Shown here piece by piece: positions 928 to 32,000 of a stretch of DNA of 32,000 bases. The notes under the pieces were generated by a model, which saw only the letters and a list, made by a program, of their open reading frames with translations, was not told the DNA's origin and searched no databases. Within the stretch, counting starts at the first letter, position 1; every line of letters begins with the position of its first letter. Position numbers and translations under genes: made by a program. The stretch covers positions 600,001 through 632,000 of the forward strand of contig JAXLZO010000001.1 in the NCBI GenBank assembly GCA_046350815.1. Direction: 5' to 3'. Source of the stretch: Candidatus Saccharimonadota bacterium. Lineage in GTDB: Bacteria; Patescibacteriota; Gracilibacteria; BD1-5; UBA2023.

Positions 928-2823
<1,896 letters not shown>

Positions 2824-2974
2824 TGCTTGCTTCTGAGCTTCGCTTATTTTTTGTTTTTTTACAGGCTTCTTATTTCACTTGGTCACTTTTGTCATGTGGT
2901 TGTTGCTAGAAAAGTAAATTTATAGTCTTCGTGGAAACACGAATGGCAGAGTATATAGGTTTTTTCTGAGAATA

Positions 2975-3016
2975 CAAACAAATTAGCACTTTATCGATAA
3001 AGTGCTAATTTGTTTG
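2975..3016. repeat. perfect 42-bp palindrome (19-bp stem, tcga centre) abutting the stop of the TraB-like gene
   Basis: caaacaaattagcacttta-tcga-taaagtgctaatttgtttg. No U-tract follows on either strand, so it may be a terminator or a protein-binding site. Confidence 0.6.
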
Positions 3017-4054
3017 CTAGAAAAGTGGAATACTTCCTATAAATTCCTGTTTAAGATTTGGATCTTTTGCTCGCAGAAGATCGATAATGCCGGATATATG
3101 AAGTGATCCATAGAGCACGAGAATATCTTTGTCACCCCGTTTTTGAATCGTATCGAATACATATTGATTGCGATCCAGAAGTATAGTATCAAAGAATGGA
3201 TCTCATCATCCGATGATTTCTTGGCTAAAGACTTCTTGGTGTCTGGTACTCAGAGAGAAAAGTGTTCGCAAGAGGAGAACTTGTAGTTGCCTTTCACGTT
3301 CATTTTTTGTTTGAAGAAGTTCTCAAAGATCATCTATATCTGTATCCGAAAAGAGGGTTGGTACATCTTCAGTAGCTGCGTTCTTCTTTGCTCGTTTTCG
3401 CTCTTCATAGAGCTCAACAATTTTATCGCTTGTCATATCTACATTATGCTCTCGATCATTTTCTGTGAGTGTATTTTGTTCTGACTGTGACGTAAGGTTC
3501 GCTTTTTTGGCGATCTCATCGTAGAATTTGTTCAAATCAGTGTTGAGAATCTCTTGGAGTCGTATGTTGCCGCTTTGTGTCCCTGACCCTACTCATTCAT
3601 AATATACTACACTTCCACTCTTTGCGAGATGTGTCCGAACTCGATCTTGTACATTTTGATAAAATTCTGGTGATGCAATATGTACCATGGAGACAAATGT
3701 AATAGTTTTATCTCCAGTTTCCACTTTGTATATGGGAAGTCTTGCTGGATTGTATATCGCATATTGATAGACAAATACTCCAATGAGAAGATACGATAGT
3801 GCTGAACAGACCGTAAGAAAAGTGGCAAGTTTTTCAAAAAACTGTCTTCGAAAAGAAATGGTAGAGGTATTATCTTTTTTTGCTCGTTTTCTCGATACTA
3901 TCAGAGAGATCACAAGAATGGGGGCAAGAAAAATGCCATTAAAGAAAATCTCGTTTCCAACGTGGATGATGCCTGATTGACCACCAAGTATCCATATGCT
4001 CGCTCAGAGGAGTATGAGCCAGTAGCTCAGAAATATGATATATTTTCGATGCAT
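3017..4054 (-). CDS. TraB/GumN (PrgY-like) family protein with N-terminal transmembrane segments
   Basis: ORFs 3323..3535 and 3593..3913 are in frame and extend through TGA codons (4004, 3593, 3323, 3206, 3203). ITFVSMVHIASPEFY...VVYYE[G]VGSG and ...DILVLYGSLHISGIIDLL resemble the TraB family N- and C-terminal motifs. ATG at 4052-4054; TAG stop at 3017. Confidence 0.5.
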
Positions 4055-4080
4055 GTTTTTATTATTTTTTGCCACGAAAT

Positions 4081-5070
4081 TTATTTAAGGGGGGTATCAT
4101 CTAGGAGGAGATTGCTGCGAGGAGAAACATCTGTGCTAGCTATCTGTCCTGGATTACTTTGAAAAGTCACATCTGATGTTAAGAGTCTCTTCTTGAGGGC
4201 TGCTTGAGTTCGAGGTCATACAATCCCTGCTGAGATATCTCGTTCATTACGAATCAGTTTTTCTTCTATTTGAAATCGTAGAAGTGCGACTCGAGTCGTT
4301 CCACTAAGTTTTCATTTTCATTTTTCTGGAATCTGTCACATATATCCAAGTCCAAAAAGAGCGTTTTGAAGTATCATTACTTCATCTTGATTGGATCCGA
4401 TTTTGAGTCAATCGAGACTTTCGACTTTTTCATCGATTTCCTTCTTCTTTGTTTCGTATGCAATTCGTGCTGCTTCTTGACGTTTGATCTCCTCTGGATC
4501 GACTATAATAGGAGTATCTTGAATATTTGGATAGAGTTTGGAAAAGTCTACTGAGAGTTCGCGTTTTGTTCCAACTGGATAGATCGTTCCTGTGACAGTT
4601 TTTCGTCCCCACGCCATTGCTCGTGTGAGACCAGCATCACCATAGCCCATCCAGATATCAAGCCTATCGGCAACATTTCCTGATCAACTTACGATCGCAC
4701 CTCCTCGATCTGATACTTTTCCAACACCTGTACTACCAAGATCAATATATTGACCAAATTGGTAGCTTCTTGGAGCTGCAATCATTCCAGGAAATACTTT
4801 TTCTCCTGATGCTCCATGCACACCTCGACCATTGAGCTTAACATCATCTTCATACGATCCGAGAAAATACCTCTTTTGACCTGGTACTGGAGAATAGTAT
4901 GCGGTAATGACAAATGTTTGAGTTCGTGGCTCGGTAATTTCGGATGCAAGGCTGAGTGAATCAGCGGCATAAAGAGTGTTACTCGATGTGAGACTCACGA
5001 GGAAAAATCAGGCAAGAGAGACAAGAAGGGTTGCTCTTGAAGAAAAGGACTGGGAAAGAAATGTAGTCAA
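4081..5070 (-). CDS. secreted 3D-domain (MltA/RlpA-like) protein with C-terminal peptidoglycan-binding domain
   Basis: ORFs 4684..4998 and 4408..4650 are in frame and continue to TAA at 4081. 3D-domain signature: VITAYYSPVPGQKRY...NGRGVHGASG...VSDRGGAIVS[G]GNVADRLDIWMGYG. C-terminal PG_binding_1-like stretch: ILQNALFGLGYM[G]QIPEK...TTRVALLRFQ. There is no in-frame ATG, so the start is uncertain (TTG 5068-5070 or GTG 4996-4998). Confidence 0.7.
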
Positions 5071-16013: not shown

Positions 16014-16330
16014 AGAGAGTATCAGGAAGAGTGGATGGAAGAGATTGCTTTGCAATCTCAATACTCCTCTCAAACCTTGGATTCTCAAGGTATGCCATGA
16101 ACTGAGCGCTATCGTAGTGTTGATTGACTCTGTAGGTATAAGGTGTTCCATCTAAAGGATCATAGATTTTATCTGATCCATACCCGAGAGGATTCACCAA
16201 AGCAAGACTCATGAATCCTTGGTATCCAATGAATGATCCACTCACACTAAGAGAGACACTATCTGCTATAGGTGTAGGAAGCTTTCGAAGTTGTGCACTC
16301 GTAATCCTTGCACTCTCTGACAATGTCTTA

Positions 16331-17083
16331 GGGTCTAAACCAGTTGACAGGATAAATTATCCCATAAACTTGGCTCTATGATCAGTAAAACTACCTATAG
16401 GAAAAAATCACGAATTTGAGATGCAAAAATAAGAGAAATTGTGAAATATTTTTCTCTGGATTTTACTTCAGATAAAACAGCGGTATTAACAGGTCTCAAT
16501 CCAAAAACAACACAGGATTGGTATAGATATATCAGAAAGGCGATAGCCTTTCTCTGTGAGAGAGAAAAGAATGAAATATGGACTGGAAATGTTGAGATAG
16601 ATGAGAGTTACTTCTGACCAACAAGAGTCCGATGAAAGAGAGGAAGGTGAGCTGGTATGAAGACAATAGTCTTTGGTTTACTCAAAAGAAACTGAAAAGT
16701 ATATACTGAGATAGTTCCTGATGTAAAAGCAAGGACTCTCGTGCCAATCATTCGATGAAAACTTCGTATAGAAGAGTCTGAGATTAACAGTGATGGATGG
16801 TGAGCTTATGATGGGCTTGTAGATATTGGATATGAGAAACACTACCGTGTTCATCACGGAGCAAATGAATTTGCAAGATGAACTCAACACATTAATTGAA
16901 TAGAGTCATTTTGGAGTTATACCAAAAGAAGACTCTCTCAATTCAATGGAATCAAGAAAGTCTACTTCTACTATTTTTTGAAAGAATCTGAATTCAGATA
17001 TAATTGTCGTATTCAATGAAAAGATATTTATAAGGAAGTGCTAAAGTTACTTCGTCAATATAACCCGTAACTGGTTTAGACCC
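16331..17083 (+). mobile_element. IS1595-family (IS1016-like) insertion sequence, copy A, 753 bp
   Basis: 15-bp perfect terminal inverted repeats GGGTCTAAACCAGTT. Flanked by the direct repeat TGTCTTA (16324-16330 and 17084-17090). As far as compared by eye, it is identical to the inverted copy at 24886..25638. Confidence 0.9.
16378..17070 (+). CDS. IS1595-family (ISXO2-like DDE) transposase, 230 aa
   Basis: MISKTTYRKKSRI[G]DAKIREIVKYF...NVEIDESYF[G]PTRVR[G]KRGR[G]AGMKTIVFGLLKRN[G]KVYTEIVPDV...INSDGW[G]AYDGLVDIGYEKHYRVHHGANEFAR[G]TQHIN[G]IESFWSYTKRRL. There are 10 in-frame TGA and a TAA stop. Confidence 0.9.
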
Positions 17084-17290
17084 TGTCTTAATATCACTAA
17101 TTCTCTTTCCATCTCTTGCTACTGATGACTGATGACTCATCACCACAAACCCTATCACGGATAGTATAGAGAGTATGGTAATCACTACTATGAGTTCTGT
17201 GAGGGTGAAGGCAGAGTGGTTACTGAAAGAAGAAGGGGATGATTTCAAAGAAATCATCTTAAGAGAATGACTGCGTGAAAAAAGAGACAT
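17084..17290 (-). pseudogene. 5' portion of the IS-disrupted surface protein, carrying the type IV pilin-like class III signal
   Basis: MSLFSRSHSLKMISLKSSPSSFSNHSA|FTLTELIVVITILSILSVIGFVVM...RISDIKT then runs into the IS. Phe+1 and Glu+5 are present. An alternative start is ATG 17255-17257. Confidence 0.7.
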
Positions 17291-24865: not shown

Positions 24866-24885
24866 CCAGATTGCGAAATATTAAA

Positions 24886-25638
24886 GGGTCTAAACCAGTT
24901 ACGGGTTATATTGACGAAGTAACTTTAGCACTTCCTTATAAATATCTTTTCATTGAATACGACAATTATATCTGAATTCAGATTCTTTCAAAAAATAGTA
25001 GAAGTAGACTTTCTTGATTCCATTGAATTGAGAGAGTCTTCTTTTGGTATAACTCCAAAATGACTCTATTCAATTAATGTGTTGAGTTCATCTTGCAAAT
25101 TCATTTGCTCCGTGATGAACACGGTAGTGTTTCTCATATCCAATATCTACAAGCCCATCATAAGCTCACCATCCATCACTGTTAATCTCAGACTCTTCTA
25201 TACGAAGTTTTCATCGAATGATTGGCACGAGAGTCCTTGCTTTTACATCAGGAACTATCTCAGTATATACTTTTCAGTTTCTTTTGAGTAAACCAAAGAC
25301 TATTGTCTTCATACCAGCTCACCTTCCTCTCTTTCATCGGACTCTTGTTGGTCAGAAGTAACTCTCATCTATCTCAACATTTCCAGTCCATATTTCATTC
25401 TTTTCTCTCTCACAGAGAAAGGCTATCGCCTTTCTGATATATCTATACCAATCCTGTGTTGTTTTTGGATTGAGACCTGTTAATACCGCTGTTTTATCTG
25501 AAGTAAAATCCAGAGAAAAATATTTCACAATTTCTCTTATTTTTGCATCTCAAATTCGTGATTTTTTCCTATAGGTAGTTTTACTGATCATAGAGCCAAG
25601 TTTATGGGATAATTTATCCTGTCAACTGGTTTAGACCC
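24886..25638 (-). mobile_element. IS1595-family (IS1016-like) insertion sequence, copy B, inverted relative to copy A
   Basis: Reverse complement of 16331..17083. Flanked by the direct repeat TATTAAA (24879-24885 and 25639-25645). It sits between the stop of the 24533..24865 gene and that gene's terminator hairpin. Confidence 0.9.
24899..25591 (-). CDS. IS1595-family transposase (copy B)
   Basis: Mirror image of 16378..17070; ATG (cat) at 25589-25591 and TAA (tta) at 24899-24901 were checked. Confidence 0.9.
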
Positions 25639-25644
25639 TATTAA

Positions 25645-25677
25645 ATTCCCAACTTCATATGAAGTTGGGAATTTTTT
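25645..25677 (+). terminator. rho-independent terminator, probably belonging to gene 24533..24865 and separated from it by IS copy B
   Basis: attcccaacttc-atat-gaagttgggaat followed by ttttt. Confidence 0.7.
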
Positions 25678-25699: not shown

Positions 25700-26300
25700 T
25701 TATTGTGTGTGATTGGACGTATATTATTTCCATCCTTGGGTCCAAAACCCTGTTTGCTTTCAAGCCGATTGTAACTAGAGTGTCAAGTGTATACATGACT
25801 CAATATAAATCAACATGGTGTACCGAAAAGCATCACATGCTGTCTATGACTGCAGGTATCACATAGTATGGATTACGAAATATAGAAGAAAATGTCTTAC
25901 GAAACCAATTCAAGAATCAGTACAACGAATCATAGAATGAATCTGCAAAGAACTCTACATCACACCCATTGCTATTGGTATGGAAGAAGATCATATACAT
26001 GTATATCTGAGTATTCCTCTTGTACATCCAATTCCATTTGTAGTCCAAATGTTTAAATGAAGAAGCTCACACCATATATGGACCGATACAATATTTAAGT
26101 CTCATCTAAAAAACTTCTATTGGTGAGAAAAGAAATCTCTCTGGGCAGTGTGATACTTTTGTACAACAGTCTGAGCAGTAGATGGAGATATCATCAAAAA
26201 ATATGTAGAACAACAATGAAAAGAAGATGTCGAAGGTGCAGAAATAGAAATTTAAAGCAAAACAAAAGCCACGGCGCTTTAGACCGTGGCTAGATCGGTT
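25700..26300 (+). mobile_element. IS200/IS605-family element carrying tnpA only (boundaries approximate)
   Basis: Y1 transposase gene plus a subterminal hairpin, agccacgg-cgctttaga-ccgtggct, at about 26270-26294. The ends were not defined and no tnpB is present. Confidence 0.5.
25815..26255 (+). CDS. tnpA: IS200/IS605-family Y1 (HUH) transposase TnpA, 146 aa
   Basis: MVYRKASHAVYDCRYHIVWITKYRRKCL...EEDHIHVYLSIP...MFK[G]RSSHHIW...LWAV[G]YFCTTV[G]AVDGDIIKKYVEQQ. HUH motif (HIH) and catalytic Tyr are present. There are 6 in-frame TGA. Confidence 0.9.
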
Positions 26301-26378: not shown

Positions 26379-26768
26379 ATGAGTTCTACAAATACAAATA
26401 CTACTTGGTGTGTACTACACAAGCAAGACTGGCTTGCAAATTACGGTCCAAAAAAACGAAATGTTCTCTTTGTTATGATCGTAGCGAATATACTCATGCT
26501 GATCATGACATGGCACCTTCCGTTCCTGGTTGAAGTATTGTGCATGTATCAAGTATGTGTCATGATGGTAATATTTGCATATGCCCTCTCATACCGAAAG
26601 ATATGGAAAGATGTGCAAAAAGTTTTTCCTGACTTGACGTGGAGCGAGCATGAAGCATTGTTTGCTTACACAACCAAGCATTATGCAACGCGCGCATTCT
26701 TCTTCTCCCTGTTTTGGCCAGCATTTTTCCTTCCTCGATCTTCGAAGAAGTGGGAATATGAACGCTAA
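26379..26768 (+). CDS. hypothetical membrane protein (129 aa)
   Basis: aaggag RBS before ATG 26379 (the ORF-track start is 26349). Several hydrophobic helices; TAA stop. Confidence 0.5.
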   Translation: MSSTNTNTTWCVLHKQDWLANYGPKKRNVLFVMIVANILMLIMTWHLPFLVEVLCMYQVCVMMVIFAYALSYRKIWKDVQKVFPDLTWSEHEALFAYTTKHYATRAFFFSLFWPAFFLPRSSKKWEYER

Positions 26769-26785
26769 AACGAGATTCATGTTAC

Positions 26786-26814
26786 CCCAGCTTTAAAGGA
26801 AGCTGGGATTTTTA
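26786..26814. terminator. bidirectional terminator between convergent genes; overlaps the speE stop
   Basis: cccagct-ttaaagga-agctggg followed by attttta. Confidence 0.6.
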
Positions 26815-27645
26815 TACGCTCAGAAATTTTGGAAGTACAAAACATGCACTATGGATCTCTGGCGTGTAGTACTTGAGATCGTCGAATTGTCCGGGGTGAT
26901 TGCGAAATCATTGAGTAATCTGAGGAAGCTTTGAACTTATGAAAAATCAAAAACAACCACTATGGTACATAGGAATAAAAGCAAGATATCGATCGACACT
27001 TGCAAAATTCCTCTGAAACATCTGATGCTGTTTCCGATAAAAATCCAAACGACTAAAAGGAGAGTCCCCATAGCTCACGATGAGAGCGTTTGTATTGGTG
27101 ATTGTTTTAATATCTCCAAATATTGTCTCACCATGAAGTTGACCACCAAGTTCTCCATCTTCACTATCATCAGTACTATCAACGAACACGATATCAAAAG
27201 GAGCTCAGCTATATTCTTGTACAAAGATTGTGCCATCCTGATGGACGAGTGTTGACCGAACATTATTGAATCCGGATGCAACTTGAGGAAAATATTTGCG
27301 AGCAACTTCTGTAACGACTGGATCAATATCACAGGTGACAACTTCTTCTATGCTTTCATATCTGAGAAGTTCTCTCAAACACCCGCCATCTCCACCACCG
27401 AGAATGAGAGCTCGCTTTGGATTCTGATGAGTTTGCATAGCAACATGTACCATCATCTCATGATAGCTCCACTCGTATGCATCACAGAGTTGTATGACAC
27501 CATCGAGGAGGAGTATATTTCCCCAATCCTGATGATGAATAACTTGGAGGTGTTGAAAATTGGATTTTATATCGAGGAGTATCTCTGTATCAGAGAGTAT
27601 GAGTGTGCTCTTGTGACAATATTCACCCTCTTTATGGTCGTACAT
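26812..27645 (-). CDS. speE: spermidine synthase (polyamine aminopropyltransferase)
   Basis: ORFs 27205..27645 and 26947..27189 are in frame and extend through TGA codons (27205, 26947, 26908) to TAA at 26812. Features: LLLDGVIQLCDAYEWSYHEMMVH, ILGGGDGGCLRELL, FDIVFVDSTDD, and a C-terminal KYYTPEIHSACFVLPKF. Confidence 0.9.
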
Positions 27646-27651
27646 AGTTGA

Positions 27652-28032
27652 TTATTTATGAGCTATCATTGATCGATGGATCGTTTGAAGTTTTTGCTCT
27701 TGTGATTGGAATATTTCCATAAGTTTCTTATAGAGGTTCTCCGCTTTGGATGAATTATCTTGGCTCTGATTGCAGACAAATACGTCGATCGATACATACC
27801 CAAACTCCGGCCACGTGTGGATAGATACGTGTGATTCCGCAAGGGCAAATACTGCAGTAAATGATGCTCATCAGAATAGATGTATATGTTCACCGAGTCG
27901 ATTGAGTCACTCATCGTCAATCATACTGCCAAATATATTGATAATACCGTCTCGTGTGATAGTCGCAAAATCCTCAAAAGAGCATTCGTAGAGATCTCCA
28001 ATAATATGAATTCCAGTTTTTCCTAGTAGCAT
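27652..28032 (-). CDS. speH: S-adenosylmethionine decarboxylase proenzyme (small, class 1)
   Basis: [17 protein letters not shown]...F[G][G][32 protein letters not shown] carries the ES|H self-cleavage motif. It ends 6 nt upstream of the speE start. Confidence 0.85.
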
Positions 28033-28175
28033 GGTATGGTTTGTTTTGAGAATGGGGGAATTATAGAAAAAAAGATGAAAAATAAAATGTTCACAAGAAA
28101 ACTCTTTCTGAAAAGATTTTTTTGAGCTTTTATCAGAACTCACTACACTCTCAGTATTATTTATTGCACTTTAAT

Positions 28176-28886
28176 ATGCTTACTCGCAATATCTGTGATA
28201 TTGTCGTCTTCCATACGCCTCTTGATGTGAATAGTGCTATATCCGAGCGAACCAAGATCGTGAGAGAAATGGTGGATGGTTATCTCTCTGGAATGGGAGT
28301 ATCTTGGAATACTCATGAGAACATAACTCCCACAACACAGACAATCATATCAGAGTTTCAGGGTACTATTTTCACTATGAGTTTTTCTTCATCAGTCGGA
28401 TTGATACCGTCAATTCGAGCGAGTCTTATGCCGAGTTCACAACTCTCCAAAGCAATTGTAGAAAATTTTCTCTCTGACATTGTTCGCATTTTTCGTGGAC
28501 AATTTTTTGAGAGATATTTTCTCGAATATGATCCAATCTATCATCTCGATGAGATGAATATGGGAAAAAAATATGATCTTGATGATATTGCTTGATGCGA
28601 TATACGATCAGCGTCTCATGATGAAATCGTCCGTCTGCTCGATGCTATTTATTTTCTCCATTTTCGTCTCGTTCGAGAACTTTCTCGTTCGCTTGATAGC
28701 GAGGAAAATATAAGTACACTTCTCGGAATTTCACTCTCGAGTGATCTTGTCCTCGGGCTTCAAACATCATGAGTGAGGATTGGAGAGATACAACAATCAC
28801 TCATCTCACAGATTGCGCAAGTGCGCGCCCAAATAGAACTTTTTAATTCTTTGCTTCCATCGCTATGATACTCGATCCATTCGTAG
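28176..28886 (+). CDS. hypothetical protein (236 aa), first gene of the operon divergent from speH
   Basis: ATG 28176. The frame continues through TGA at 28596, 28770 and 28866 to TAG at 28884. It overlaps the next gene by 22 nt. Confidence 0.5.
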
Positions 28887-29317
28887 TACTTTCCGGTCTT
28901 TGTTATTTGCTTCTTGGTATTCTTCTTCTTGCAATCTCATTGTGGTTGTTTGAGGGATGGACACGATTTGATGTACGTCATGAAATCCTTAATACTCAGA
29001 ACAAGGCTCTTGCAAGTATTGTAAAATGAGTTGTTATGGGGCAGGGTATTATTATTACCGCCGCCATATTTTTTACGGGTTATACTCCCGATCATGAAAC
29101 GCCTATTTTGCAGGTATTTCTTCCATCACTCTTATGGAGTGCGGTCTTCGGACTCATCGGTATGGTGTTTCTTCAAGGATTACTCTCGCTCTTCTTTCGT
29201 GTGCCACGTATGGAAAAGGAGATTCTCATCGATCAGAATATGGCACTTGCGAGTATTATCGAAGGTGGATTGGTGGTTCTTGCTCTGATGGTTTCGGTTG
29301 CTTTTTATTCCTACTAA
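28865..29317 (+). CDS. DUF350 (YjfL-like) integral membrane protein
   Basis: MILDPFVVLSGLCYLLLGILLLAISLWLFEGW...NKALASIVK[G]VVMGQGIIITAAIFF...NMALASIIEGGLVVLALMVSVAF. It has four hydrophobic helices, and the NxAxA motif appears twice. Confidence 0.7.
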
Positions 29318-29392
29318 GCATTCTTCTGAGATATGGCATCATTACATAATGAAAATAATACAAAAGACGGTGTAGGGCAATTGGGAAGATTT

Positions 29393-30634
29393 ATGATTGC
29401 TCGAGATGTAGAAGATTTTGTTGTACGCGAAGGATGACAAGTGCATGGAAATATCCTCATCGAAACACTCGCCGCAATACCGACGAATACACCGAAGTGA
29501 ATCTATGATGCTTATGAGCGAATTTTCTTCAAGGAGACAGCCGATATACTCAAATACTATCAGAACTCGGCACTTTTTTTGAAGAATCTTCATCTTGACG
29601 CAGTCATCACCTCACTTGCTGCCTATATAGGAGAGATGACAAAAATACTCAAGAAGAACCAAAGCAATAAGAAGAAACTCCTTCTCATCCATCTTCCGCC
29701 GATTGATATGGTACTCTTGGCGGTCATACTCGATGAGGCTGGCGTGAAGAATGCAGCTCTCAATTTCAATCGTGCTCCGGTTGTGAATGGTATTTCCAAG
29801 ACATTTGAGGCACATCTCCTGCTCGCATCCGCACGAGAGAATCCTCGTCTTATGGCAGCTCTTGCACCACTCGTAAAGATGTTACCGTCAGATATTGCGC
29901 AGTATGATTGTATCCTCGATGAGAATGACACGGCACCTGATTATGATATTGCAACGATTGATTCATACATTGCACAGGCAATAGGATTCAAGGAACATCA
30001 GGTGATACTCAGGAGCGAAGAATATCCGGATGCTTCATTTCTCACAGCTCAAGGTATCCAAGAACTTTGTATTCTCGATATTGATGAGAGATCAGGTTTT
30101 GATACATTTTATGGATGAACATTGATCAAAGAATGAATCGACGTTCATCGAGAGGTGATTCCTTATCTGGGTATCAGAGATATTGGGGATTATGAAGCTT
30201 ATGTTCTTACAAAGAACAAAGAATACCTCGCGAATCGTGTTCAGCAGAGAGAACTCTCGATCGCTGGAGGTGGCATGAATAAATACGAGCCATCATCCGG
30301 AGGAAAGGTAAAAAATAGCACCTCGTCGCTACCGAGTGACGGAAAAAGTGACAATCAAATCTCAAAATGACAGGCGGGAGTTGCTATGGGAACACTTGCG
30401 ATGCTCATGATTTTTCTCTTTATCATCGATATGAGAAATGGTGCACCCCTATTCGCCGATAAATCAAAATACAAGACTGGGAGTGGTGCTTCATCATCGA
30501 GTCCATGGTCATCTGGAGGTCGTTGGACTTCTGGATCGAGTTCAAGTTCATCAAGTTACTCTTCGAGCTCAAGTAGTAGCTCGAAGAGTGTAAGTTCTTT
30601 TGGCGGAGGCTGATTTTCTAAGTGAGGAGGGTAG
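29393..30634 (+). CDS. hypothetical protein with a single C-terminal TM helix and a Ser/Gly-rich tail ending ...FGGG[G]FSK[G]GG
   Basis: ORFs 29579.., 30155.. and 30386.. share one frame, joined by TGA codons; TAG at 30632. An alternative start is ATG 29333. The stop lies 1 nt before the ATG of the next gene. Confidence 0.55.
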
Positions 30635-30635
30635 T

Positions 30636-31832
30636 ATGCAAATAACACCACATATCTCACCACAACGTGAAATGGATACTCAATATGTCACAGAAAAAGT
30701 AGAAGCTCTGTATGGAGATCTCAATCTCCCAAAAGACTATTTTGACTATGTGGATAATGAGGTATTTGTGAATTTGTCGTCCGAGGAAGATGAGAATCTT
30801 CGAACTCTGGTGAGTCGTGTCGATGCGATCATGCGACAGGCATATATCTATGCCTATGAAGAGCGATATATTCGACTCGATGAATATCGTCCTTGGCTTG
30901 ATCGTTTTCGTCAGGAATATCCCTACGATGAGCATTTCATAGCTCGCTATGATGCAGTATTTGATAAGAATGGTGTGATCAAATTTGTTGAGAATAATGC
31001 AAATACTCCTGGGATGCAATTAGAGTCGATGTATTTTAGTGATTGGCTCACTCCGGCTGGATATACGAGTCATGCAAATCGTATCCGATCGAGCATCCTT
31101 GATTTTTGGAGGCGAAAGAGAGATGAAAAATGACTCAAAAATATTGCTATTCTCACAGCCTACACATTCGAAGAAGAGGATCATCTTGTGTGTCGTACCT
31201 ATGCGGAAATACTCTCAGAAATCTTTGAGCCATCATCTTTGGTAGTAGGAGATATCTATGATATGCACATTGTTGACGGACAAGTTTTTGTTCGTTGAAT
31301 CCCCGTTGATGCTGTTCTTTCTTATTTTCCACTCGAATTCTTTTTGACAGATTATGAGTTTGCTGATGATTTCTTTCAGGTGGTATTCGATGGATGATGT
31401 TTCTTAGCAAATCCTATTGAATCAATCATTCTCCAGGATAAGTGACTCTTTGCAACGATTCATGAACACAAATCGAAATTTTCTGAGGAAGATCAGCTTA
31501 TTATCGAACAGCATATTCCCTATACACAGCGCAAGATGCCTGATTCGAGTGATGGATGGATTGCAAAATGGCGATTTGGGAGATACGGTCGTGAGATATA
31601 CAAAGCTCATTTTGAATGAGAAATCGTCGAAGAGTCTCATTATATTTATCAACAGTATTTTGAGCCGCAGAGTATCAATGACAAGAATGATTTCCTCGTA
31701 TTTTCCATCTATACGACGATGCGAGAGGTGCTTGGATATATCGTGCGTCGGCAATTTCGGCACACGACGGATGACAGAGATAATGTTGTAACGATGGTGT
31801 ATACGGATAATACAAAAAGCTTTATTTGATAA
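30636..31832 (+). CDS. glutathionylspermidine synthase family (YjfC/YgiC-like) ATP-grasp amidoligase, 398 aa
   Basis: aggagg RBS. IARYDAVFDKNGVIKFVENNANTPGMQLESMYFSDW and IPVDAVLSYFPLEFFL...FLANPIESIILQDK[G]LFATIHE match the GSP_synth family core. The frame was checked codon by codon through 7 TGA to TAA at 31830. Confidence 0.8.
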
Positions 31833-32000
31833 TGATGTCTATGGAAATATTTATTTTAATAGCAATGGGTCTCATTTTTGGAGCACATAATGTAATTATC
31901 AAGCACTTCAAAGGAACTCATCGCACGATGATCATTGTCTGATTGATTGTCGGGTTTCTATCCCTCATATTTGGGATGGGTTGAATGATCGCTTTCTTTG
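31832..32000 (+). CDS. membrane protein, 5' partial (continues beyond the window)
   Basis: The ATG overlaps the preceding TAA (TAATG). MMSMEIFILIAMGLIFGAHNVIIKHF...IIV[G]LIVGFLSLIFGMG[G]MIAFF is hydrophobic. Confidence 0.4.

Follow-up and report, generated by a model that had tools for sequence, protein, structure and literature searches.

A polyamine-linked DUF350/ATP-grasp ligase module with a conserved Ser/Gly-rich tail in Gracilibacteria that read TGA as glycine

A 32,000-nucleotide (nt) stretch of a Gracilibacteria genome (contig JAXLZO010000001.1; hereafter the window) carries two polyamine-synthesis genes, speH and speE, that diverge from an operon encoding a DUF350 membrane protein, a membrane-anchored protein whose tail is rich in Ser and Gly (the tail protein) and an ATP-grasp ligase of the GSP_synth family. 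We tentatively read this locus as a variant, written in genetic code 25, of the membrane module built around DUF350 and YjfC/YgiC-type peptide–polyamine ligases, with the C-terminus of the tail as the favoured acceptor. Taken as a whole, we put this statement somewhat short of an even chance.

Operons that combine YjfL (DUF350), an ATP-grasp ligase related to glutathionylspermidine synthetase (GspS), DUF1190 and DUF2491 with S-adenosylmethionine decarboxylase (AdoMetDC) and other polyamine genes have been described, and occur with or without a CesT/Tir–PspA dyad (Ravi et al. 2024, PMC11237479). According to the same paper, the linkage to AdoMetDC was first noticed by Li et al. (2019), who also proposed that a membrane-associated aminopropyltransferase may aminopropylate a substrate other than putrescine. 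For the Escherichia coli ligase YgiC, a 2025 review reports, after Pederick et al. (2023), that glutathionylspermidine synthetase activity is absent and that the enzyme has peptide–spermidine ligase activity in vitro (PMC11762307); its physiological substrate remains unknown (PMC11762307). YgiC and YjfC have been termed ‘peptidylpolyamine synthetases’ (PMC12568646), and RefSeq names both products ‘peptide--spermidine ligase’. Our literature search found no paper on the DUF350/ligase module in Gracilibacteria. An earlier, sequence-only reading of this DNA had called the substrates of the YjfC/YgiC branch undefined and the module widely conserved but uncharacterised. The physiological substrate is indeed still unknown, although in vitro peptide–spermidine ligase activity had already been reported; and the module is conserved, but ‘uncharacterised’ was an overstatement, because the module, its polyamine linkage and the in vitro chemistry of the family have all been published.

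A conserved module in recoded genomes

Under genetic code 11 the region is broken into many short open reading frames (ORFs), and the window holds 19 ORFs of at least 150 amino acids (aa), compared with 59 under table 4/25. In five pairs of orthologous proteins from the window and a distant relative, the residue facing TGA was glycine 11 times and tryptophan never, and for two window proteins, the tail protein and the product of the first operon gene (hyp1), NCBI has identical entries from a metagenome-assembled genome (MAG) of a Candidatus Gracilibacteria bacterium (locus tags U0518_03255 and U0518_03265, on a 1,283,673-bp contig). Table 25 is therefore correct, and TGA is a sense codon for glycine across the window (1–32000). 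Homologues in public metagenomes are often translated with table 4, which introduces spurious tryptophans, for example SFWGGGFSKWGG instead of SFGGGGFSKGGG at the end of the tail protein.

Once TGA is read as sense, the gene coordinates and spacing given in the sequence-only reading stand, with the exception of the tail-protein start. On the minus strand, speH lies 6 nt upstream of speE, and the pair diverges from a tightly coupled plus-strand operon in the order hyp1, DUF350, tail protein, GSP_synth ligase and small membrane protein. We confirmed from the sequence that hyp1 (28176–28886) overlaps the DUF350 gene (28865–29317) by 22 nt, that the tail-protein gene (29333–30634) stops 1 nt before the ATG of the ligase gene (30636–31832), and that the ligase stop codon overlaps the ATG of the next membrane ORF as TAATG.

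We compared the window with 12 related loci, drawn from metagenomes and from MAGs of Gracilibacteria and Patescibacteria, in which the proteins were mapped by table-25 tblastn. The hyp1, DUF350, tail-protein and ligase genes co-occur in all 12, down to 30% ligase identity. This core quartet is contiguous and in the same order except in one lineage (L002/L004), in which the ligase gene lies 5.8 kb downstream; the tail-protein gene is immediately 5′ of the ligase gene in 11 of 13 loci. Genes for AdoMetDC and an aminopropyltransferase are linked to the quartet in nine of the 12 relatives, in two arrangements: on the same strand and downstream in seven, and divergent and upstream, as in the window, in L013 and L014. 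Typically, the locus continues beyond the ligase with the small membrane protein, a beta-rich protein of about 377 aa (p377), the aminopropyltransferase, AdoMetDC and a membrane protein of about 365 aa with His motifs (TM366). In L013, the proteins of which are 94–99% identical to those of the window, speH–speE lies upstream on the opposite strand, just as in the window, and the operon continues with the small membrane protein, p377 and TM366, without an in-operon aminopropyltransferase or AdoMetDC gene. L014 has the divergent layout of the window though its ligase identity is only 32%. Recurrence in 12 related loci argues that the arrangement is not due to chance. The head-to-head junction itself is not conserved, because in L013 a 644-aa ORF with an N-terminal hydrophobic segment (2200–4134), which the window lacks, lies between speH and hyp1. 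The gene order is kept in relatives. The central proposal of the sequence-only reading, that DUF350 and a GspS-like ligase form the basis of a compact, conserved module for polyamine conjugation with polyamine-synthesis genes linked to it, is upheld by the ubiquity of the quartet, the frequent linkage and the retention of the ligase core described below.

In L001 (5632–6807), L006, L007 and L008, a gene for a Rieske/ring-hydroxylating oxygenase alpha-subunit lies on the same strand directly 5′ of hyp1, which is unusual for Patescibacteria.

The ligase belongs to the YjfC/YgiC branch

The ligase gene (30636–31832, plus strand) encodes a 398-aa stand-alone synthetase domain with no amidase domain. 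The protein matches PF03738 with 72.6 bits (E = 4.6e-20; gathering cut-off 29.3) over model positions 18–363 of 371, and its clade comprises 38 clusters, all at least 30% identical and all with PF03738. Its sole sequence match in the Protein Data Bank (PDB) is YgiC (7uk8), at a phmmer E value of 0.12; phmmer gave no match from the window ligase to structures of Gss, the bifunctional glutathionylspermidine synthetase/amidase. In an alignment of seven Gracilibacteria ligases, YjfC, YgiC and the synthetase portion of Gss, 13 columns were invariant, 12 of them charged or polar. In window numbering these include R104, D106, E119, N121, A122, E181, E234, K269, K311, R316, Q339 and R371, and in Gss numbering R316, D318, E330, N332, E391, E445, K498, K533, R538, Q568 and R598 with neighbouring residues. 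All positions invariant across YjfC, YgiC and GspS are unchanged in the window ligase; among them, presumably, are the residues that Gss structures assign to Mg2+/ATP and the acyl-phosphate. The alignment reaches only the C-terminal synthetase part of Gss (residues ~205 to 619), and the DSASC that follows the E-x-N-A-D motif in Gss is NTPGM in the window ligase and DTPTS in both YjfC and YgiC. A bifunctional synthetase/amidase was therefore rejected, as the amidase domain is missing and the SASC stretch is replaced. Together with the intact invariant core, these two features suggest that the enzyme is a catalytically plausible member of the YjfC/YgiC branch and not a glutathionylspermidine synthetase. 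The family assignment made in the sequence-only reading holds for both the profile match and the invariant core residues.

A near-invariant motif ends the tail protein

The gene directly upstream of the ligase gene encodes a protein composed of an alpha/beta domain, one transmembrane (TM) helix, a hypervariable Ser/Gly linker and a conserved C-terminal motif. It had been described as a protein of about 414 aa that starts at 29393 and has one TM helix and a Ser/Gly tail. The helix and the tail are borne out, whereas the start is not: the family-invariant residues R19 and F20 lie upstream of 29393, so the most likely start is the ATG at 29333, which gives 433 aa (29333–30634, plus strand) and matches the NCBI call. 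A word-indexed search returned 16 relatives, and a profile search of 1.84 billion representative proteins returned 52 matches with the same architecture or fragments of it; a family scan found no Pfam domain in any relative. In an AlphaFold2 (AF2) model, residues 55–310 form a five-stranded alpha/beta domain with a predicted local distance difference test score (pLDDT) of 80–93. This folded domain is of a cytoplasmic type, with the invariant polar motifs NFNR-P-VN-SKT-EA, DENDT and D-x-D, and Foldseek against the PDB found no fold relative for it (TM-scores of at most 0.2, large rmsd).

The single TM helix (30377–30433; residues 349–367, GVAMGTLAMLMIFLFIIDM) has a Kyte–Doolittle value of 2.15 over 19 residues and is predicted to span residues 345–368. 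All 13 orthologues have a comparable segment near residue 350, and an N-terminal hydrophobic segment is absent from all 13. The tail beyond the helix is 58–75 aa long in these orthologues, with 22–44% Ser, 19–34% Gly, a net charge of +2 to +5 and almost no acidic residues. It ends in the motif SFGGGGFSKGGG-COOH (30596–30631), a candidate recognition or acceptor peptide, in which SFGGGGFSKG is invariant in 13 of 13 orthologues and is followed by GG, GGG, ST or LG. In pairwise comparison the last 12 residues average 95% identity, compared with 36% for the folded domain, 27% for the Ser/Gly linker and 13% for the linker before the TM helix. Among the orthologues, the Gly codons of the motif vary freely between GGN and TGA, and this synonymous turnover points to selection at the protein level. 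By this comparison, the end of the tail bears the signature of a putative functional short linear motif at a free C-terminus. A hairpin with a 13-base-pair stem at 30557–30590, within the Ser-rich coding stretch, arises from complementary runs of Ser codons (AGC/AGT versus TCT/GCT-type) and is probably a by-product of low-complexity coding sequence.

The tail resembles those of DUF1190 proteins in being Ser/Gly-rich and net-positive, with a GGF-type motif and a Gly-Gly end (compare YjfM, ...SRGGYGRSSSARGHWGG), but this is likeness and not membership. Neither the 13 family members nor their isolated tails matched DUF1190 (PF06693), for which the YjfM control scored 63.9 bits, and hhalign of the tail protein against the E. 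coli DUF1190 proteins gave probabilities of at most 0.4%.

Similar tails adjoin these ligases in other phyla

To guard against cherry-picking, ligase neighbourhoods were sampled from a plasmid collection at even rank steps and joined with the two E. coli loci (n = 11). In E. coli, the DUF1190 proteins YjfM and YgiB adjoin the ligases and end in ...GHWGG (longer, ...VSRGGYGRSSSARGHWGG) and ...TRGGFG...TSSRSMGG, respectively. Further DUF1190 neighbours were found in Rhizobium (...QGFGGRSSFSFGG), Roseomonas (...SRAGFGATGRSYSSGG) and Sulfitobacter (...SRGGFGRSGGSRGFGG), and lipoproteins of 139 aa in Deinococcus (...SRGGLTSTARGALSSGG) and 177 aa in Pseudomonas (...VRAGGYSSGG). The neighbours in Sphingomonas, Trichormus and Bacillus end in ...SRGGFGSSARRFGSIHA, ...SGFGSFRSGGSSS and ...GNAKAPAGS, and the distant stand-alone ligase of Azospirillum has no such neighbour. 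A -GG end is therefore present in 7 of 11 cases (both E. coli proteins, Rhizobium, Deinococcus, Roseomonas, Pseudomonas and Sulfitobacter), on Ser/Gly/Arg tails with an SRGGFG-like motif. YjfM matches the DUF1190 model through to its last residue, and the model is matched by none of the Deinococcus, Pseudomonas, Bacillus and Trichormus proteins, nor by the Gracilibacteria tail. A similar tail thus recurs on unrelated scaffolds beside this ligase family, in Proteobacteria, Deinococcota and Cyanobacteria as well as in Gracilibacteria.

The tails of the DUF1190-like partners carry a net charge of +6 to +14. The internal hydrophobic segment before them has a weak Kyte–Doolittle value of about 0.8–0.9 in E. 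coli, and TM-grade values of 1.64 in Bacillus and 1.80 in Pseudomonas. A cytoplasmic tail is plausible for some of these partners but does not transfer to the Gracilibacteria protein. On the Roseomonas plasmid (L021, 2709–6480), two tandem GSP_synth ligase genes are followed by DUF350 and then a 323-aa DUF1190 protein ending in ...SYSSGG, a gene order reversed relative to E. coli.

Polyamine-synthesis genes and other module components

The speE gene (26812–27645, minus strand) encodes a 277-aa putative spermidine synthase/polyamine aminopropyltransferase of the canonical soluble type, with three TGA-encoded glycines and the GGGDG motif, and is 94% identical to its counterpart in L013. It matches PF01564 (E = 2.6e-43) and the tetramerisation domain PF17284 (E = 3.9e-09); its best NCBIfam match, PRK00811, scores 236.8 bits, under the equivalog cut-off of 260, and TIGR00417 scores 207.9 bits, under its equivalog cut-off of 249.55. 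The speH gene (27652–28032, minus strand) encodes a class-1b AdoMetDC of 126 aa from the ATG at 28032. It matches PF02675 (E = 6.5e-22) and passes the equivalog threshold of TIGR03330 (78.5 bits, cut-off 75.65), and its self-processing motif is present, with ESH kept in all seven aligned orthologues.

Across the loci the aminopropyltransferases fall into at least three sequence types. The best match of the L001-type enzyme is PRK03612, a membrane-domain type, and its score also exceeds the subfamily threshold for MFS_SpdSyn; the enzymes of L014 and L016 are too divergent for a match to either the soluble or the membrane type. The enzyme has been replaced repeatedly while the linkage persists, which points to selection on the linkage of the polyamine genes to the module. 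The in-operon aminopropyltransferase (L001, 12081–12890; also L003 and L005–L008) gives a membrane-type match yet has no membrane domain. TM366, which follows AdoMetDC, carries the His motifs FDVGHVWG, HFIKQQ, LVHGMNYYG and THYILDRYIW and may be a detached membrane partner of this enzyme.

The DUF350 (YjfL-family) gene (28865–29317, plus strand) encodes a 150-aa multi-pass membrane protein. Its earlier assignment to DUF350 stands, as PF03994 scores 57.8 bits (E = 1.6e-15) against a cut-off of 26, and the family aligns to E. coli YjfL in hhalign with a probability of 76% (E = 2.3e-5). An NCBIfam match to a myxosortase core was dismissed as noise (16 bits, cut-off 100).

hyp1 (28176–28886, plus strand; 236 aa) is a lineage-restricted protein represented by only six database clusters. 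Its orthologues sit 5′ of DUF350 in all loci and share invariant residues that include a G-K-K motif, and neither hyp1 nor nine orthologues match Pfam or NCBIfam. The AF2 model has low confidence (pLDDT 53; shallow alignment), and Foldseek with this model found nothing significant. Candidate identities as DUF2491/YjfK, CesT/Tir (YjfI) or PspA (YjfJ) were rejected, with hhalign probabilities of at most 0.2% and no Pfam match among ten orthologues. Three weak Foldseek matches of the low-confidence model were potato AdoMetDC, Trypanosoma brucei AdoMetDC and human spermine synthase; a relationship to AdoMetDC or to the N-domain of spermine synthase was nevertheless discarded, because hhalign against the AdoMetDC sequences of the loci gave a probability of 0.4%. 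More generally, hhalign, Pfam and NCBIfam were negative for p377, the membrane protein TM149, TM366, hyp1 and the tail protein as homologues of YjfI, YjfJ, YjfK, YjfM or YgiB, and the DUF1190, DUF2491 and DUF4178 families that had been proposed as search targets are undetectable in the Gracilibacteria loci.

Flanking features of the locus

The small multi-pass membrane protein that follows the ligase begins at 31832 (plus strand), runs past the window end at 32000 and is 73% identical to a 125-aa ORF of L013, the close relative that served as a guide to the operon beyond that point. Between speH and the plus-strand operon lies an intergenic region of 143 nt (28033–28175), presumed to hold the promoters; a promoter scan of it gave no signal above chance, and Rfam gave no match in the window. 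At the other end of the polyamine genes, a G+C-rich hairpin followed by a T-run (26786–26807), between the end of speE and a convergent upstream ORF that ends at 26768, is by its position a plausible bidirectional terminator bounding the module; terminator-like sites are no more numerous across the region than expected by chance. Two inverted, 100% identical copies of a 763-nt insertion-sequence-like element (16322–17084 and 24885–25647), each encoding the same 230-aa protein, bracket a 7.8-kb segment some 1.2 kb upstream of the module. A 146-aa ORF (25815–26255, plus strand) that begins MVYRKASHAVYDCRYHIVWITKYRRK presumably resembles a Y1 transposase of the IS200/IS605 type.

Proposed mechanism and alternatives

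In the mechanism that we favour, SpeH and SpeE would make spermidine or a related aminopropylated amine, as expected for their families. The ligase would activate a peptide carboxylate with ATP, as an acyl-phosphate, and then transfer the acyl group to the polyamine, as has been reported for YgiC and YjfC of E. coli only. The favoured acceptor, and the least certain step, would be the C-terminal ...SFGGGGFSKGGG-COOH of the membrane-anchored protein encoded upstream. The terminal carboxylate of this protein would become a polycationic amide of the polyamine at the membrane, and DUF350 and the remaining membrane proteins might partner or handle the modified tail. As peptides, the candidate acceptors would be KSVSSFGGGGFSKGGG-COOH for the window ligase, ...SATGTSSRSMGG for YgiC and ...GRSSSARGHWGG for YjfC. 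The comparative data favour the carboxylate of the tail as substrate, circumstantially, in several ways: the contrast between 95% and 36% identity, the Gly codon turnover, the position of the gene directly 5′ of the ligase gene and coupled to it, and the -GG-ending Ser/Gly/Arg tails on 7 of 11 ligase neighbours, several of which are not DUF1190 proteins. Extended to the whole branch, YjfC/YgiC-type ligases would be protein C-terminal polyaminylases that place spermidine on the terminal glycine of an adjacent tail (that of the SFGGGGFSKGGG protein, YjfM or YgiB); we judge this generalisation, like the specific substrate claim taken by itself, on balance unlikely. To our knowledge, C-terminal polyaminylation is not a known post-translational modification in bacteria.

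Several points weigh against the tail as acceptor. The link between ligase and tail is a comparative one. The main objection is topological: with one TM helix and no N-terminal signal, the simplest topology would place the tail outside the cell, and the ligase, which has no export signal, would be cytoplasmic; this caveat of the sequence-only reading stands, unless, as we can only speculate, the tail protein is modified before membrane insertion. Some orthologues and analogues end in -ST, -LG, -GGSSS, -AGS or -SIHA, and the distant stand-alone ligase of Azospirillum does without a tail neighbour. Ser/Gly-rich tails are common low-complexity features, so that likeness over a short motif cannot establish homology, and neither Pfam nor hhalign recovers a link between the tail and DUF1190. 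Moreover, the aminopropyltransferase linked to the module in relatives is of the membrane-associated type, which may act on a substrate other than putrescine (Li et al. 2019, as cited in PMC11237479).

The topological difficulty does not arise if the ligase instead makes a small soluble peptide– or metabolite–polyamine conjugate from a carboxylate other than glutathione, in which case hyp1, DUF350 and the tail protein would sense, scaffold or transport that product or polyamines, and the tail would be an interaction motif. The change from SASC in GspS to TPGM fits a different small carboxylate; the invariant acidic residues of the tail-protein domain (E125, E159, DEND 196–199, D249, D251 and E288) could bind a cationic ligand; and the family members characterised so far take small peptides in vitro, glutathione in the case of GspS and, as cited in PMC11762307 and PMC12568646, peptides in the case of YgiC and YjfC. 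Yet peptide-synthesis genes of the gshA/gshB kind occur in none of the 13 loci, and it would go unexplained why conservation in the neighbouring protein peaks at its extreme C-terminus and why -GG tails are found across phyla; we regard this alternative as unlikely, though by no means negligible. A role in membrane stress or remodelling, with the module sensing or buffering polyamines, the tails acting as generic disordered linkers and the ligase regulating free polyamine, seems to us improbable. PspA–CesT/Tir operons have been proposed to monitor polyamines or aminopropylation and thereby alter membrane structure (Ravi et al. 2024, PMC11237479), the Rhizobium locus has PspA and YjfI beside an ion channel–YjfK–DUF350–DUF1190–ligase array, and the Gracilibacteria operon keeps several membrane proteins; but searches of the Gracilibacteria loci detected no homologue of PspA, CesT/Tir or Band-7, and a generic linker would not hold 95% identity over its last 12 residues. 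This role is in any case compatible with modification of the tail and with a small conjugate, and does not exclude either chemistry.

The polyamine itself could also be unusual, if the aminopropyltransferase modified something other than putrescine, perhaps one of the module's own components, and the ligase then used that product in place of ordinary spermidine. In most relatives, the best match of the in-operon enzyme is PRK03612 and its score passes the MFS_SpdSyn cut-off; AdoMetDC in these operons is followed by a conserved membrane protein of 365 aa; and such enzymes and DUF350 have been tied to a polyamine-independent role of AdoMetDC (Li et al. 2019, as cited in PMC11237479). However, by its domains, tetramerisation domain included, the enzyme of the window and of L013 belongs to the canonical soluble type, so that ordinary spermidine would seem to be enough, and the aminopropyltransferase is the most freely exchanged component of the module, so that we consider this a long shot. 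That the head-to-head placement of speH–speE and the operon is a coincidence with no function has a vanishingly small probability in our estimate. The junction is not fixed, as the inserted 644-aa ORF of L013 shows, and insertion-sequence elements lie nearby in the window; but the linkage is present in 9 of 12 related loci, in two orientations, and in other phyla too (PMC11237479). Chance adjacency is effectively excluded.

Modification of the tail, our tentative preference, would bear on a widespread enzyme branch, one member of which lies in the E. coli tolC operon, for which in vitro chemistry has been shown but a physiological substrate and role are missing; DUF350 is likewise unexplained. 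That genome-reduced, recoded Gracilibacteria retain the module and tie it to spermidine synthesis argues for a basic role at the membrane. The near-invariant C-terminal motif and the -GG tails across phyla make the question of the YgiC/YjfC substrate directly testable, E. coli included. If true, the polyaminylase proposal would account for the co-occurrence of AdoMetDC and aminopropyltransferase genes with the module, name the missing physiological substrate of the ligase family and add a new protein modification to bacteria. If the tail is not the substrate, the analysis still delimits four new protein families for the biology of the Candidate Phyla Radiation.

Comparison with known systems

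The closest point of comparison is the pair of E. coli loci yjfIJKLMC and tolC–ygiBC, which share with the Gracilibacteria module the order of a soluble protein, DUF350, a membrane-anchored Ser/Gly tail ending in Gly-Gly and an ATP-grasp ligase, as well as a homologous DUF350 and the invariant ligase core. The sequence-only reading had likened the operon to yjfKLMC; the order and the Gly-rich, GG-ending tail support this, but only DUF350 is detectably related to its counterpart: hyp1 and the tail protein hold the places of YjfK (DUF2491) and YjfM (DUF1190) without detectable homology to them. YjfM and YgiB are small Cys-rich lipoproteins, whereas the Gracilibacteria partner is tail-anchored with a 300-aa cytoplasm-type domain, and the ligase is very divergent from YgiC (E = 0.12 to 7uk8). 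The yjf locus includes a PspA/YjfI dyad; the Gracilibacteria module has none, but has speH and speE physically linked to it.

Gss and the trypanosomatid enzymes GspS and TryS belong to the same Pfam family, have the same ATP-grasp core and form an amide between a glycine carboxylate and a spermidine amine, but Gss has an N-terminal amidase domain and the SASC stretch, both of which are absent from the window ligase. RimK, which acts on ribosomal protein S6, and tubulin tyrosine ligase are ATP-grasp enzymes that modify protein C-termini, and rimK is often found near the gene for its target. By analogy, ATP-grasp activation of the C-terminal carboxylate of a partner protein would be shared with the Gracilibacteria ligase; the two enzymes differ in belonging to other ATP-grasp families and in adding amino acids, not polyamines.

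The polyamine-linked PspA/DUF350 operon classes of Ravi et al. (2024; mSystems) and the AdoMetDC–DUF350–GspS-homologue linkage of Li et al. (2019; Biochem J 476:2579) likewise bring together DUF350, a GspS-like ligase, AdoMetDC and an aminopropyltransferase in one neighbourhood, and the aminopropyltransferase of the relatives resembles their membrane-fused type. Of the accessory families described for these systems, DUF1190, DUF2491, DUF4178, DUF4247, DUF2617, Band-7, CesT/Tir–PspA and the K+ channel are undetectable in the Gracilibacteria loci, which instead carry four unannotated, lineage-specific families: hyp1, the tail protein, p377 and TM366. The wider module was therefore known already, and it is the Gracilibacteria version, with its lineage-restricted accessory proteins and conserved tail, that is new.

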